Virus record (IMG/VR): IMGVR_UViG_3300033153_015023
Location: 1-64,000 of that record
DNA length: 64,000 bases
Source of the DNA: a virus
Reading direction: 5' to 3' (one strand)
Under the pieces are notes generated by a model that ran no database searches, was not told the DNA's origin, and saw only the letters and a list, made by a program, of their open reading frames with translations. The position numbers were made by a program, and so were the translations under genes. Position 1 is the first letter of the stretch. Every line of letters starts with the position of its first letter. Positions 967 through 38,080 of the stretch are shown here, one piece after another.

Positions 967-1036
967 CGGTAACTATTTTTTATGTTAGGGTGTATTATAT
1001 AGTAGAAAACAATTTTTAGGTATTAGAAAAAAGTTG

Positions 1037-1065
1037 TTGACAAAAAATATTGGGTAGTTTATTAT
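1037..1065 (+). promoter_or_regulatory. Sigma70-type promoter for the ParB-like gene
   Basis: TTGACA-17 nt-TATTAT with upstream A-tract. Confidence 0.8.
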
Positions 1066-1070
1066 TAATA

Positions 1071-1165
1071 GTATGAACGCTAAAGTATTAAATATATTGG
1101 CCCTTCTTCCCGGTGCCCTCCTTCGGGCGTGGCGTTCAGACCGGGAAGCCGGGCTTTATTTTTTA
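1071..1165 (+). promoter_or_regulatory. Structured 5' leader/attenuator, copy 1
   Basis: Stem ggcccttcttcccggt/accgggaagccgggct followed by a T-run; 5' tgaacgcta is complementary to loop tggcgttca. Confidence 0.65.
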
Positions 1166-1171
1166 TAGGAG

Positions 1172-1951
1172 GTGCATATGATAGCACATAGGTTAGCGAA
1201 ATACTTCCCTATACTTGAAGGGGAAGAGTTTGATTTACTTGTACAGGATATAAAAGATCATGGGCAACTTGAACCGATTGTTACTGTAAATGGTGAGATA
1301 CTTGATGGTGTGAATCGCTATAAAGCTTGTATGAAGTTAGGTATTGATACTATTACCGAAGAATATGAAGGTGATGATCCTTTAAGCTATGTTATCTCGT
1401 TAAATATTCGGCGTCGACATCTTGATACCAGCCAGCGAGCAATGTTGGCAACTGAGATGTTGCCGGAGTTTGAGAAGAAAGCGAAAGAAAGATTAAAAAC
1501 TTCATTGCCTGGTGGTGGACGCCTAGGGTCAGAAGACCCAGGGCAAACATGGGAAGACATACATCGCTCAAGGGATGATGCTGCTAAACAATTTGGTGTA
1601 TCTGGCCCGACAATTCAGCGAGCTAAACGCGTCAAAGAGGAAGCGCCTGAAAGAGTAGAAAAGATTATCAAAGGCGAGGAAACAGTAGGTGCCGTTGATG
1701 CAGAATTGCGTCAAAAAAAAGCGGCTAGATCCTATGCAAAGAAGAGAGAGAAGGAAGACAAAAAAGAGATAAAGCAGAAAACGCCTATTTTGGTGAAGGA
1801 ATATTTTGATGCTTTGAAGGCATATAAAAAAGCCTTAGGATTAGCTATCAGGGGAGCTTATCTATTTTCCCCTGAATCAAATAATATACTTCAGACAAAG
1901 CACGATGATCTGATAGAATTGATGCGTAGTCTGGAAGGAGCGATTAAATGA
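1172..1951 (+). CDS. ParB/Srx N-terminal domain protein with HTH
   Basis: GQLEPIV...ILDGVNRY motif, N-x-x-RRHL motif, AAKQFGVS HTH; GGAGG SD. Confidence 0.85.
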   Translation: MHMIAHRLAKYFPILEGEEFDLLVQDIKDHGQLEPIVTVNGEILDGVNRYKACMKLGIDTITEEYEGDDPLSYVISLNIRRRHLDTSQRAMLATEMLPEFEKKAKERLKTSLPGGGRLGSEDPGQTWEDIHRSRDDAAKQFGVSGPTIQRAKRVKEEAPERVEKIIKGEETVGAVDAELRQKKAARSYAKKREKEDKKEIKQKTPILVKEYFDALKAYKKALGLAIRGAYLFSPESNNILQTKHDDLIELMRSLEGAIK

Positions 1952-2445
1952 TCAAAGAAAGGAAAAGTGATATTAGGGAAGATCGACTTAATATAGGTGC
2001 GGATATCCTTTTGGATATGAGAGATGAAGACTTGCCACAAGCAACATTTCTAAGAGTTGCTTTGATTATGGTTAAGTATTTTAAGGAAGGCAAATATATC
2101 AAGGATTTAGAAAAAGTAGGCTATTCTAGTTCCTTTGGCTTAAGACCGAGCTATTGGAATAATAACAGGAAAGATTTAGAGAGAGTTATTCTTGAACGTG
2201 GTTACGTCTTTTATCATTCTCAGGAATGGGTTAAACCAGACAAGGAAAAAAATATACCTGGATTTTTTAGGCATGGCTGGGGATTTCCTACACCAGAAGA
2301 ATTTAATCACACACGTAACCAGCAAAGAAAGGGAATTGTAAAACGGAAAGATACTTATAATGAGAAAATAGAAAATGCACCGGCCAGTTATCAAGATGCC
2401 CTACCCTATCTAAGAACTATGGAAATAGCAGGTCCAAATAATTAG
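1948..2445 (+). CDS. Hypothetical protein, coupled to the ParB-like gene
   Basis: ATGA overlap; 165 aa. Confidence 0.7.
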   Translation: MIKERKSDIREDRLNIGADILLDMRDEDLPQATFLRVALIMVKYFKEGKYIKDLEKVGYSSSFGLRPSYWNNNRKDLERVILERGYVFYHSQEWVKPDKEKNIPGFFRHGWGFPTPEEFNHTRNQQRKGIVKRKDTYNEKIENAPASYQDALPYLRTMEIAGPNN

Positions 2446-5608: not shown

Positions 5609-6464
5609 TCTAGGGGCAGAAGAACTTCAGCAGCTTGAGAGGGGTTGGTGGGAATTCCGCTGCCTAAATCCTGATCATAACGACCATCATCCCAGCATGG
5701 GATACAATGAATTTACTGGGGCATGGTCCTGTTTTAGTTGTCTTTCAAAAGGCAGTGGCCCGGTGTTTTTAACCATGTTGGCGCTTGATAAACAATATGA
5801 AGAAGCGGTTGAGTTTGTTCTTGACTATGTGATAGGTAAAGAGGATTGGAAGCCTAGAGAGATCAAAAAGAAGCGTAGGATAAAAGTACCTATAGAAGGG
5901 TTTGTAGAACTTCCAGCAGCAGCAATTAAGTATTTAAAAGATAGAGGAATTCCTATAAAGTTTGCACAAAAAAAGGGTGTTAAATGGTCGAATAGTATGA
6001 GCAGGATTATTATTCCCATAACAGAATATTATTGGACTGCAAGGGCTATTGATGATTCAAAACCGAAGTACCTGCATACTAAAGGTTTTTCAAAAAGTGA
6101 AGTTTTGTACAATTTTGATTCTGTGCATAGGGTTGTTTCTGGTGTAGGTGTTGTCGAAGGTGTGTTTGATGCGTGGAAAGTAGAGCTCGCAGGATTCCCA
6201 TGCGTGGCAACTTTCGGCGCGGGAATATCGAATGGACAATTAAGGCTACTGGATGGATTTGTACGATTAGTAGCCATACCTGATAAGGATCAAGGTGGTG
6301 AATTATTTATTGAGAGAATTTCAAAAGTGAGGAATCCTGAATTATGGATAGCGGAACCACCTGGGAAGGATGTAGGGGCGTGTACTATAGAAGAAGTGAG
6401 GAAGATATGGGAAGAAAAGAGGCTGTTTTGGAAGGTATATTCACATATTTTTGTCAAGAAATAA
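5478..6464 (+). CDS. dnaG: DNA primase, CHC2 Zn finger plus Toprim (start probably ~5538-5544)
   Basis: CLNPDHNDHHPS..CFSC; VVEGVFDA; DKDQGG. Confidence 0.9.
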   Translation: MQMLFPLIRRVGIVEKKIARMYMKALLKKSRELIQLDTERWLLDLGAEELQQLERGWWEFRCLNPDHNDHHPSMGYNEFTGAWSCFSCLSKGSGPVFLTMLALDKQYEEAVEFVLDYVIGKEDWKPREIKKKRRIKVPIEGFVELPAAAIKYLKDRGIPIKFAQKKGVKWSNSMSRIIIPITEYYWTARAIDDSKPKYLHTKGFSKSEVLYNFDSVHRVVSGVGVVEGVFDAWKVELAGFPCVATFGAGISNGQLRLLDGFVRLVAIPDKDQGGELFIERISKVRNPELWIAEPPGKDVGACTIEEVRKIWEEKRLFWKVYSHIFVKK

Positions 6465-6472
6465 AAAAGTTG

Positions 6473-6501
6473 TTGACAATTATTATTGTGGGGTTTATAT
6501 T
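6473..6501 (+). promoter_or_regulatory. Sigma70-type promoter upstream of the repeat array
   Basis: AAAAAAGTTGTTGACA-17 nt-TATATT, same upstream context as the 1037 promoter. Confidence 0.8.
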
Positions 6502-6508
6502 ATAGAGA

Positions 6509-6606
6509 GTATGAGTATTCGACTATTTCAAAGATTTGTATTGCCTCCAAAAATTTGATATCTTTAGTCGGATACTCAGTCAAATTTGCGGGGGCTTTAT
6601 TTTTTA
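6509..6606 (+). promoter_or_regulatory. Structured 5' leader/attenuator, copy 2
   Basis: Stem gcctcc..aaatttga/tcaaattt..gggggc followed by a T-run; 5' tgagtattcgacta is complementary to loop tagtcggatactca. Confidence 0.65.
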
Positions 6607-6621
6607 TAAGGGGGAATTAAA

Positions 6622-6914
6622 GAGCGGGCCAAGAAGAATGAGAAAACCAGTGGTCACGAGCGAGCCAATCCCCGCGAGAAAACCACCAGAGGTGAGCGAG
6701 CCACGGAATATGAGAAAACCATGTTTCACGAGCGAGCCAATGATCAAGAGAAAACCACTCCCCTGGAGCGTGCCAAAGGTGTGGAGTAAACCAGAGTGTT
6801 AGAGCGTGCCACGAATATGGAGAAAACCATAGAAGGGAAGCGAGCCATTGATGTCGAGAAAACCATTGATAAAGAGCGAGTCAAGTGAAAAGAGAAAACC
6901 AGTGGGTGTGAGCG
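6622..6914 (+). ncRNA. TIGR-like dual-repeat guide array (8 units of 36 nt)
   Basis: GAGCG(A/G/T)GCCA-N8-GAGAAAACCA-N8, units starting at 6622, 6658, 6694, 6730, 6766, 6802, 6838, 6874, plus terminal GAGCG at 6910; 16 different spacers. Confidence 0.85.
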
Positions 6915-6972: not shown

Positions 6973-7662
6973 GTGCGACGTATAAAAAAGAAAGTAATCT
7001 GGCAGGTAAAAGCAAATCCAGAAAAAATAAGGCTCTGGAAACAAAATATTTCCAGGGGATTAAAACTTTATTGGATGTCACCAGCAGGCATATTAAGAAA
7101 ACAGGTTATGAGGGAAAGTTTCTCTGGACCTGTTAAAGTAGAGTATCAAAAGAAGATACAAAGTAAGAAACCTTTTGAAGATATTCTGAAGGAATTTGCG
7201 CCATGGAAAGAAGGTTTGATACGTAAGTTCTCTAGTTACCCAGCAGAAGAAATTTCACAGGCAATAGATATTGGCATGTGGAAGGGGTATACAAAGTGTG
7301 TAGATAAAAAGTATCTAACATCTTCTGTAACCAGCTATGGATACTGGTCCCTGCTAGATTTTTTAGAGAGTGAAAGACATCCCGATGGAAAACTTGTTTC
7401 TACACCTACTGCTAATATGGATGTTTTTGAAGATGATGTCATATCTATCGAATCAAAACCTTTATTCTGGGCAGCTGTAAAATTTGTTAGGGATAAACTT
7501 TCAAAACCTGGAAAAGAAACACTAGATCTTCTGATCAAAGGATATAGCCAGCGGGAAATAGCAGAAATAAGGGGTGTTTCACCAGGAAGAATTTCACAAA
7601 TTATTACAAATATTATCCGGCCACGAATAGCAGAAGTTTTATCCTATGCAAGTATTATGTAA
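6973..7662 (+). CDS. Phage sigma70-family RNA polymerase sigma factor with basic N-terminal extension
   Basis: Region 2-like EEISQAIDIGMWKG...YWSLLDFL; region 4 HTH GYSQREIAEIRGVSPGRISQI; AAGGAG SD. Confidence 0.75.
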   Translation: MRRIKKKVIWQVKANPEKIRLWKQNISRGLKLYWMSPAGILRKQVMRESFSGPVKVEYQKKIQSKKPFEDILKEFAPWKEGLIRKFSSYPAEEISQAIDIGMWKGYTKCVDKKYLTSSVTSYGYWSLLDFLESERHPDGKLVSTPTANMDVFEDDVISIESKPLFWAAVKFVRDKLSKPGKETLDLLIKGYSQREIAEIRGVSPGRISQIITNIIRPRIAEVLSYASIM

Positions 7663-18636: not shown

Positions 18637-19450
18637 TATTTGTGTAATAGATGCAAAAAACTTTGTCTATAGAATGGATTGGGCTTATAGAGTTCTCAAA
18701 GATTCTAAAGATAGATCTACCAGTGTTTTGTATGGAACCATAAAAGGTCTTTTAAACTTAAAAAAATATTATCCTATAAAACGATTTATGTTTTTATGGG
18801 ATTCCTTTAACAGTTGGCGTGTTAATATCTATCCGGAATATAAAGCAGGTAGAAAAAAAGACTATCAGAATACGTTTACTGATCAAATAGATATTCTAAG
18901 AAAAGATATACTTCCATATATTGGTATAGATCAATTAGAGGCGAATGGTTATGAAGCTGATGACTTAGCTGCATGGATAGTAAAAAATTGTTGTGGTGAT
19001 ATATTATTAGTTTCTAATGATCATGATTGGAAACAACTTTTATGGAATGATTACATTTGGTTATTTGTACCTATTAAAAAAACTGTTCTAGGTAAACATT
19101 TAGTTTTAAAAGAAGAGGGTTTGACGCCACAACAGCTTCCTTATTATTGGAGTATAATTGGTGATACTTCAGATAATATAAAAGGTATTTATAGATTCCC
19201 AAAAAAAGAAGCTAAGTTATTAGTTTTAAAAACAGATTGTTTTATTAACTTTTCGCCTATTCAATCTAAATGGGAAAAGGTGCTAATAGAAAATATTGAT
19301 ATTGTAGAACGCAATTTAAAATTAATTCAATTGAATGGTAAAATAACTAATATTGCATGGACTAGATCTCTTAAAGATAAAAAGGTTTTTCAAGAAATTT
19401 GTAATGAATATGGTATTGTATCCCTGGTTGTAAAATTTGGGTTTTTATAA
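18629..19450 (+). CDS. 5'-3' exonuclease (FEN/RNase H-like)
   Basis: YPEYKAGR, EADD, SNDHD, GDTSDNIKGI. Confidence 0.92.
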   Translation: MYDICVIDAKNFVYRMDWAYRVLKDSKDRSTSVLYGTIKGLLNLKKYYPIKRFMFLWDSFNSWRVNIYPEYKAGRKKDYQNTFTDQIDILRKDILPYIGIDQLEANGYEADDLAAWIVKNCCGDILLVSNDHDWKQLLWNDYIWLFVPIKKTVLGKHLVLKEEGLTPQQLPYYWSIIGDTSDNIKGIYRFPKKEAKLLVLKTDCFINFSPIQSKWEKVLIENIDIVERNLKLIQLNGKITNIAWTRSLKDKKVFQEICNEYGIVSLVVKFGFL

Positions 19451-20013
19451 TGCTGTGGTTTATTATAACTTTACCAGCAAAACTTGCAGAATACCATCTT
19501 GAAAAAGCAATTAGACGGGGGTTATTGAACAGTCATTTTATTAGAAAAGATATAATTATCTATATTCCAGTACTTACACAGATAACAAATGGACATACAA
19601 CCAGCATATCTTTATATGAAGGTTATGCGTTTTTAGGTCTGCCTGATAAAGAAGACGTCTTTCAATTTTTTGAAGGTTTTGAAGACAGATATAACTTTTT
19701 GACGGTGCTACGAAAGGTTGTTACTGAAAAAAATCATGTTGGGAAATCTGTTGATAATAAAATACCTGCAATAATCTCTCGAAGTATTATAACTGATGCA
19801 AAGCGCAGATGTAGTACATCACGAAGGGAATCAGATAAATCTTATCGATTTAAAATTAAGGATAGAGTCCATATTACAAAAGGTGTGTTTGAAGGATTTG
19901 AAGGAACTATAAAACAAATAAGTTCTTTAGGGACAGAAGTGTTTGTCGATATTTTCTTTTTAGGTGCGACTACATCAATTCGTACGGATAAAGAAGATCT
20001 TGAAAAAATATAG
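19450..20013 (+). CDS. nusG: NusG-family antitermination factor (NGN plus KOW)
   Basis: LYEGYAFL; FKIKDRVHITKGVFEGFEGTI KOW. Confidence 0.8.
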   Translation: MLWFIITLPAKLAEYHLEKAIRRGLLNSHFIRKDIIIYIPVLTQITNGHTTSISLYEGYAFLGLPDKEDVFQFFEGFEDRYNFLTVLRKVVTEKNHVGKSVDNKIPAIISRSIITDAKRRCSTSRRESDKSYRFKIKDRVHITKGVFEGFEGTIKQISSLGTEVFVDIFFLGATTSIRTDKEDLEKI

Positions 20014-37439: not shown

Positions 37440-37459
37440 TTTATTTAGAGGAGAATAAA

Positions 37460-37603
37460 ATGCTTTGCAAATGGTCTCACGGACGCGATGTATATGAGTT
37501 TGATGCAAATACGAAAGCAGAAGAAATACAGAAGATAAGAGGGCTTGCAAAGGCTCAAGGTTGGAAGTTTAAAGATATGAAGAAGGAAAATAGCAATGAA
37601 TAA
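37460..37603 (+). CDS. Small hypothetical protein
   Basis: GAGGAG SD before ATG 37460. Confidence 0.55.
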   Translation: MLCKWSHGRDVYEFDANTKAEEIQKIRGLAKAQGWKFKDMKKENSNE

Positions 37604-37856
37604 AGGATTAAGAACATATGGGGCCATTGTTATCCTCGACGATCGAATAACAGAGCTGGAAACTGAAATGAAACAGGTACTAAAAGAATTTGATGAGGTC
37701 GAGAAACAACGCGATGAGTTGCTTGAGATATGCAGAACAGCGGAAAAGACAGCAATAGAAATACACTCTGGCAGAAGGCATGAAGGCTCTATGCCTTGTG
37801 GAATATTGGCAAGAAAACTAGAAGACATTATAGGGAAAATAGAGCTTGTTATATAA
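37596..37856 (+). CDS. Hypothetical coiled-coil protein
   Basis: SD; QRDELLE motif. Confidence 0.6.
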   Translation: MNKGLRTYGAIVILDDRITELETEMKQVLKEFDEVEKQRDELLEICRTAEKTAIEIHSGRRHEGSMPCGILARKLEDIIGKIELVI

Positions 37857-38080
37857 TGTGTAACCACGGTAGGACTATAAATTGTCCAAAATGTAAAGAC
37901 TACTATGCTTGCTTAGCAGAAGAGACGCCAATTGATTGGGATAAGTTTCCACCTGAATTCTGGATTGCTGCACATAGAAGAGTTTTGAGAAGATTAATGC
38001 GAAAGCATCCTGGATTCTTTCTTAAAAGATTTGGTATAATAAGATCGGTTGGAAAGTATGTGCGTGTAGGGAAACCATAA
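37856..38080 (+). CDS. Hypothetical protein
   Basis: TAATG coupling on both sides. Confidence 0.5.
   Translation: MCNHGRTINCPKCKDYYACLAEETPIDWDKFPPEFWIAAHRRVLRRLMRKHPGFFLKRFGIIRSVGKYVRVGKP

Follow-up and report, generated by a model that had tools for sequence, protein, structure and literature searches.

Directly ahead of a ParB-like gene in a viral genome, a strong promoter is followed by a short leader that ends in a terminator, and this arrangement raises the question of what decides whether transcription reaches the gene. The stretch of DNA that was analysed, here called the window, is the first 64 kb (64,000 nucleotides) of a viral record that measures 80,025 bp, carries direct terminal repeats, and has a G+C content of 36%; nearly all of its genes are on the + strand. 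The leader in question (leader copy 1, 1073-1165) is located at the head of a rightward replication block, in which the ParB-like gene comes first and is followed by DnaD-like, DnaC-like, DnaB-like, and primase genes. A second leader of the same layout (leader copy 2) is found farther along. The features of the two loci are as follows.

1027-1065, + strand: promoter P1 (-35 TTGACA at 1037-1042; 17-nt spacer; -10 TATTAT at 1060-1065)
1073-1075, + strand: AUG, 7 nt past the -10 element and at, or no more than 2 nt from, the expected transcription start
1074-1082, + strand: strand A, UGAACGCUA, the 5'-terminal strand of helix A:A'
1083-1098, + strand: linker L1, 16 nt, AU-rich, mostly single-stranded in predicted folds
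1099-1114, + strand: strand B, 5' arm of the terminator pairing
1115-1128, + strand: small inner hairpin, GCCCUCCUUCGGGC, inside the terminator loop
1130-1138, + strand: strand A', UGGCGUUCA, in the terminator loop, partner of A
1139, + strand: linker G1139, the sole base between A' and the 3' arm
1140-1154, + strand: strand B', 3' arm of the terminator pairing
1155-1165, + strand: U-tract, UUUAUUUUUUA, directly after B'
1167-1951, + strand: ParB-like gene including its Shine-Dalgarno sequence (AGGAGG at 1167-1172; likely start ATG at 1178)
6463-6503, + strand: promoter P2 of leader copy 2 (AAAAAAGTTGTTGACAA as in P1; -10 TATATT or TATTAT)
6511-6606, + strand: leader copy 2 (AUG at 6511; A 6512-6525; L1 6526-6542; B 6543-6559; L2 6560-6564; A' 6565-6578; B' 6579-6595; U-tract 6596-6606)

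Two interleaved helices in both leader copies

Promoter P1 is a near-consensus sigma70-type promoter (11 of 12 consensus matches), with an A-rich stretch, AAAAAAGTTG, upstream of its -35 element. Leader copy 1 begins GTATGA, the ATG being at 1073; we infer both termination and, from promoter geometry, the transcription start. The terminator arms (1099/1100-1114 and 1140-1154) are 87% complementary and are followed by TTTATTTTTTA and then by AGGAGG. Strand A forms nine contiguous pairs, one of them G-U, with strand A' in the terminator loop (1074-1082 with 1130-1138), and this loop pairing was equalled by 3 of 1000 shuffles of the 5' segment. In some predicted folds, L1 also contains a weak 5-bp local hairpin. 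An earlier note on this DNA had described a promoter, a start, a terminator, and a pairing of the 5' end with the terminator loop at this locus, and all four were found where it had placed them.

The same note had reported that the architecture recurs with a different sequence, and leader copy 2 bears this out. It has the layout of copy 1, the GTATGA start, and an GGGCTTTATTTTTTATA tail, and differs in its interior. Its A:A' helix is 14 bp long (6512-6525 with 6565-6578), and none of 1000 shuffles of the 5' segment equalled the loop pairing. When the whole 80-kb genome was scanned for this layout on both strands, copies 1 and 2 alone were recovered.

Promoters P1 and P2 have 17 identical nucleotides. 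The promoter motif AAAAAGTTGTTGACA was tried as a marker of the leader family and was rejected; it matches more than 117 unrelated viral contigs and is thus that of a generic strong promoter. Several other elements lie near the promoters. Just 5' of P1, at 866-964, there are three direct repeats of the CCTTTCCAGATAAA type, 21 and 49 nt apart, which could be candidate binding sites for a regulator or an initiator. A divergent promoter-like site (TTGACA-17-TATTTT with TG) is present on the - strand at 606-634; its -35 context resembles those of P1 and P2, and no leader of the P1/P2 type lies downstream of it. An inverted repeat, TTGTCAA-N15-TTGACAA, at 6451-6479 ends on the -35 element of P2 and does not occur at P1.

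Covariation across seven leaders and their distribution

Relatives were found through a ParB-like protein search. The resulting family is small and comprised seven distinct versions of the leader from about five lineages, with five versions on phage or metagenome contigs beyond the two copies in the window. Four of the five are upstream of ParB-like genes, in L005 (= L006; genome G001), L128 (5'-truncated), L129 (= L139), and L142. The fifth is the orthologue of copy 2 in G001 (G001-2), where it stands ahead of an ordinary 125-aa gene; G001, a complete 58-kb phage unrelated to the window phage, therefore has two leaders. Counted from the AUG through the U-tract, the seven versions measured 93, 96, 102, 93, 93, 93, and 95 nt, the missing first base of L128 being counted in. 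The AUG is 4-8 nt past the predicted -10 element (6-8 nt except in L142), a spacing that puts it no more than about 2 nt from the expected start.

The seven leaders were registered from U2 together with a covariance-model alignment; MAFFT gave no common register. In six of the seven, A:A' runs ungapped from U2 over 6-14 bp, and in L142 the register is shifted. The partner of U2 is nt 66 in copy 1, nt 74 in the ParB-type leader of G001 (G001-1), and nt 68 in copy 2, G001-2, L128, and L129. In every version strand A occupies the extreme 5' end and opens with AUG, and the rest of it varies freely: the helix sequences differ throughout, with two to five standard pair types at positions 4-14. The gap between A' and B' is 0-2 nt in all seven leaders, without overlap in any of them. 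The B:B' helices comprise 13-17 pairs with duplex energies of -19 to -27 kcal/mol, and a U-rich tail of 7-11 nt follows in six leaders and is weak in L142. B:B' with its U-tract qualifies as an intrinsic (Rho-independent) terminator, and a simple terminator scan missed it because the loop, at 17-25 nt, is unusually long.

Pairing between A and A' was specific to each leader. Cognate A/A' duplexes had a mean energy of -16.6 kcal/mol, compared with -6.0 kcal/mol for swapped partners, and in a permutation test only 1 of 5040 assignments, the true one, reached the observed pairing sum. Cross-pairing between copies 1 and 2 gave -5.0 and -3.5 kcal/mol, compared with -13.9 and -20.4 kcal/mol for the cognate pairings. 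When copy 2 was compared with its G001 orthologue, 28 of 28 pairs were kept across the two helices, with seven double-sided changes, whereas slid controls retained pairing in 27-50% of cells. Moreover, A:A' has G-U pairs and no A-C mismatches, so that the signal belongs to RNA of the + strand.

Trained solely on copy 2 and its orthologue, a covariance model picked up G001-1 (31 bits) and placed copy 1 precisely at 1073-1165, with 18.9 bits and E=0.03-0.06. A covariance-model search had been proposed in the earlier note. Model R2, run over 542 kb, recovered its four training leaders and, with 20.4 bits and E=1.5, L129; it returned nothing else, missing the truncated L128 and the variant L142. 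The structured leader that had been described from one phage is thus backed, with its two interleaved helices, by covariation across seven versions. Judged by this covariation, both helices are real and under selection, and the leader is a conserved, previously undescribed phage RNA motif. It is probably an unusual attenuator that serves as an on/off switch for early and replication genes.

The true relative of the window phage is G004, in which most genes are 35-73% identical, and G004 has neither a ParB-like gene nor any leader; ahead of its sigma-like gene (L125) there is a plain promoter. G001 and the window phage have only a few cassettes in common, the leader and the ParB-like gene among them, so the leader travels in a mobile module. 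No leader with this layout accompanied ParB-like loci of at most 45% identity. ParB-like relatives in bacterial genomes amounted to two distant matches, and there are about 60 metagenomic ParB-like homologues with 50-70% identity, the surrounding DNA of which lies outside the seven-version set. Searches with blastn of both leaders against a phage collection gave no match, and viral contigs scanned by exact pattern gave only the known G001 copy and two chance matches for the copy-2 type of leader, and nothing for the copy-1 type. The earlier note had also pointed to Rfam; among the seven leader loci, no family, C4 included, matched at its gathering threshold or at E<=1.

One further candidate, L007 of genome G002, was considered and rejected. 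It has a long terminator at the same place, and its 5'/loop pairing is weak (33 of 1000 shuffles equalled it); this pairing is neither 5'-terminal nor adjoining the 3' arm, and L007 was not counted. Elsewhere in G002, at L161:18005-18100, there is an interleaved A-B-A'-B' arrangement followed by a U-tract (UUGCCGUAAACG / GCGUUUACGGCGU; ACGCAAAU.. / ..AUUUGCGU). Its geometry differs from that of the seven leaders in that A adjoins B and the start lacks an AUG.

The two leader promoters of G001 have features of their own. Both contain a common spacer, AATCGGATAT(G/A)TGGTA (L005:360-430; L157:6345-6400, - strand), and in both an inverted repeat, ATATCCG / CGGATAT, flanks the -35 element. These operator-like repeats suggest that in G001 control at the promoter is added to that by the leader.

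The 5' helix as a candidate default antiterminator

Given that strand A pairs with the terminator loop, how might it act on termination? The reading that we favour, and to which we give an even chance, is that the 5' helix is the first to form and obstructs the terminator sterically, and that termination needs an occupied 5' end. Host RNA polymerase would start at the strong promoter, at the AUG or no more than 2 nt from it. The first 9-14 bases (strand A) would pair with A' once A', the last part of the loop, leaves the polymerase. A:A' would then trap B in a closed loop and sit directly against B', the full terminator hairpin would come too late, and transcription would read through into the ParB-like/replication operon (copy 1) or into the repeat array and the sigma-like gene (copy 2). 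The paired 5' end of the mRNA would also be expected to gain protection from 5'-end-dependent RNases. If A were kept from pairing, transcription would terminate and an RNA of ~90 nt would be released.

The predicted folding of the nascent RNA is consistent with this order of events. In pseudoknot-free prefix folding, A:A' was the minimum free energy structure of every nascent prefix after the emergence of A', and in four of the seven leaders it was still so at the RNA length exposed with the polymerase on the U-tract. At full length, the terminator fold surpassed the A:A' fold in stability in six of the seven. An A:A' helix that comes early, together with a terminator that is more stable when finished, is the pattern of a kinetically set switch. 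In copy 2, A:A' can be extended to 19 pairs, with B enclosed in a 24-nt loop. In the three leaders where A:A' is 13-14 bp long, L2 measures only 5-7 nt, and L2 shortens as the helix lengthens. Because A' abuts B', B is trapped, and L2 is short, the two helices probably exclude each other. We infer that A:A' opposes termination, the exclusion resting on steric and topological reasoning since the helices have no bases in common. There is a precedent in the 'tug-of-war' riboswitches (bioRxiv 10.64898/2026.06.17.733018), in which structures that abut a terminator without base overlap suppress termination, and it is on this precedent that A:A' is read as a default antiterminator. The steric antitermination without sequence overlap would be the same in both cases. 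In those riboswitches, however, a ligand-bound aptamer stands upstream of the whole terminator, whereas the phage leader is without a conserved ligand pocket and its competing helix consists of the terminator's own loop and the 5' end of the transcript.

Without an effector, a terminator preceded every time by A:A' would stand idle. A leaderless start bound by a 70S ribosome is suggested by the invariant AUG at the very 5' end, and such a ribosome is the favoured occupant of strand A. Leaderless leader ORFs are reported to act as attenuators in mycobacteria (bioRxiv 10.1101/834739). However, the reading frame that follows the AUG in our leaders is not conserved (2-40 codons, unrelated peptides). 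Its avoidance of stop codons is weak (P=0.035, or an estimated ~0.12 when the fixed ATGA is discounted).

The earlier note had spoken of an attenuator or pseudoknot switch. The attenuator is the best reading, and a stable pseudoknot is doubtful, because an L2 of 5-7 nt must span a helix of 13-14 bp. The topology of an H-type pseudoknot is nevertheless present, with interleaved helices, an L1 of 16-23 nt, and an L3 of 0-2 nt, and the strict abutment of A' and B' without overlap could mean coaxial stacking in one fold. The two helices would then coexist, A:A' would stack on the terminator, and the 5'-triphosphate would be buried at the junction. The product would be either a small RNA of ~90 nt, very stable and with both ends closed, or a terminator that the 5' helix strengthens; in this fold the 5' helix would promote termination, or tolerate it, and might hide the AUG. 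The zero overlap and 0-2-nt separation of A' and B' in all seven leaders fit such a fold, as do the nearly fixed total length and position of the U2 partner. An AU-rich L1 of 16-23 nt could run along the 26-33 bp, threading into a closed terminator loop would call for a free 5' end, and the energies of both helices summed (-34 to -47 kcal/mol) are far beyond that of either alone. However, L2 is at or below the span needed for 13-14 bp, and in copy 2 and both G001 leaders it (UCUUU) can pair with AAAGA of L1. By our reasoning, moreover, a helix of 13-17 bp inside a closed loop needs threading that is impossible while the 3' end is held by polymerase. We therefore consider a compact pseudoknot rather unlikely.

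Returning to the default-antiterminator reading, the second choice of effector after the ribosome is the released leader itself, which would pair in trans through its exposed A' loop. Taken further, the leader would be a self-addressed riboregulator, in which A' of the released ~90-nt RNA captures nascent 5' ends before the antiterminator locks; this we hold to be unlikely. If it were so, terminated RNA would drive further termination, as a built-in timer or a copy-number brake. The A and A' sequences differ in all seven leaders, and copies 1 and 2 do not cross-pair, so that under this self-addressed reading each operon or phage would have a private address and the leaders would make orthogonal, easily reprogrammed switches.

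A different explanation is that the terminator is a fixed barrier, overridden by a processive antiterminator of the phage, either a promoter-loaded one like Q or a NusG paralogue, as at lambda PR'-tR'; the 5'/loop helix would then be incidental or serve only to stabilise the RNA. A strong constitutive promoter, a short leader, and a strong terminator directly ahead of genes would suit this arrangement, and the near-identity of the promoter pair within each genome (17 nt in the window; spacer and flanks in G001) fits a promoter-bound factor. The window phage does encode a NusG-like protein, which the earlier note had proposed to act on the leader. The ORF (19450-20013, 187 aa) is divergent: it matches TIGR00922 with E=2e-9, below the curated cut-off, and phrog_6386 ('transcription antiterminator'), and is missed by PF02357 and the KOW domain alone. 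The NusG-like gene is found only in the window phage (G000) and G004, whereas the leaders are found only in G000 and G001. Because G001 has two leaders and no NusG-like gene, and G004 the reverse, the proposed link to NusG fails. In addition, no Q-like gene was identified in a non-exhaustive search, and the covariation and fixed place of A:A' would be left unexplained. An override of this kind is distinctly unlikely in our view.

The AUG could instead open a real small gene, or a pyrBI-like leader peptide, with readthrough decided by its translation across the terminator. An AUG is present at the expected 5' end of every version, and in four of the five ParB-type leaders its frame is open through the terminator (31, 30+, 38, and 40 codons), ending on the Shine-Dalgarno sequence in copy 1 and L128 or overlapping the ParB-like start (ATGA) in G001-1. 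However, the frame closes after 7 codons in L142, after 15 and 18 codons in the copy-2-type leaders, and after 2 codons in L007, a non-member at the same position. Given also that the peptides are without similarity and the stop-codon bias of the frame is weak, we regard a functional leader peptide as quite improbable. Least credible of all, and very improbable, is an ordinary terminator with a chance loop complement or a protein-bound DNA inverted repeat: the sequence is AT-rich with many short chance complements and the promoter motif is generic in phage contigs, but the shuffle P value was about 0.003 or less in three independent leaders, the permutation result was 1/5040, compensatory changes are present, G-U pairs are tolerated only in the + strand reading, and A and A' differ in every copy, which leaves no common DNA-binding site.

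If, as in the favoured reading, the 5'/loop helix gates the terminator, the leader would be a natural case of protein-free antitermination without sequence overlap. It would be a device of ~93 nt with a freely exchangeable 'address' of 9-14 nt, and a compact, modular addition to the repertoire of transcription attenuators. The genes under its control would be those of replication, joined in one phage by a guide-like repeat array and a sigma-like gene, and the leader travels with the ParB-like gene between otherwise unrelated phages.

Comparison with known leaders, and neighbouring elements

The trp, pyrBI, and pT181/pIP501 'preemptor' attenuators likewise have a short leader with an intrinsic terminator before the first gene and an alternative helix, made earlier, that is expected to prevent the terminator. 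As in a classical attenuator, A:A' is the earlier helix and the finished terminator is the more stable one (six of seven leaders). In classical attenuators, however, there is base overlap between the alternative helix and a terminator arm, whereas A:A' has none in any of the seven leaders; here, the helix joins the extreme 5' end to the terminator loop and lies against the 3' arm. The leaders yielded no regulatory codons. Countertranscript attenuation in pT181/pIP501 involves an antisense promoter in the leader, whereas a consensus scan of the - strand at 1000-1300 and 6450-6700 gave no promoter with at least 9 of 12 matches.

Control of the P4 CI and P1/P7 c4 RNA type is similar in that complementarity within the transcript of a phage leader leads to premature termination, and it is possible that leader-derived RNA acts in trans on nascent copies as P4 CI RNA does. 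The P4 and P1 systems rely on a processed RNA that has two target sites to pair with and acts by way of Rho or a translational block. The phage leader differs in having one cis partner per strand, an intrinsic terminator, and no Rfam match. In the 80-kb genome, no complementary target for A or A' was found beyond the cis partner when up to 1-2 mismatches were allowed; the few near-matches were same-sense chance copies. The likeness to P1 c4/P4 CI-type control that the earlier note had drawn thus holds as a loose analogy, there being no Rfam match and no second target site.

Lambda PR'-tR' (6S RNA) with Q, and HK022 putL/putR, resemble the present leaders in that two promoter-proximal copies occur per phage and a short terminated RNA would be made from a strong promoter. 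Neither has a counterpart of the covarying 5'/loop helix, and no Q-binding element or put-like two-hairpin element was identified in our leaders. RNAs of the ompA, ermC, and SP82 type carry 5'-terminal stabiliser hairpins, in which the helix likewise starts 1-3 nt from the 5' end. In the phage leader, by contrast, the partner strand is located ~55 nt downstream in the terminator loop, which would link stability of the RNA to the termination decision.

Directly 3' of copy 2, at 6622-6914, there is an array of eight 36-nt units in which GAGCGAGCCA-N8 alternates with GAGAAAACCA-N8. The array ends ~60 nt 5' of the sigma-like gene (6973-7662), is overlapped by a repetitive ORF of 54 aa (6638-6802), and received no score from Tandem Repeats Finder. 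The leader is not confined to such an array, given that in G001 the orthologue of copy 2 is followed by a plain protein gene.

The two phages with two leaders have other sequences in common. At genome positions 67648-68791 (L248:3648-4791), there are four small ORFs that are 38-96% identical to a cluster in G001 (three of them 76-96%) and are common only to these two phages. The proteins found only in both (67648-68791; window 1948-2445) belonged to no informative family and offered no effector candidate. Finally, the segment at 37445-37867 of the window is 82-88% identical to G001 at the translated level, and may represent an RNA cassette common to the two phages instead of a gene.
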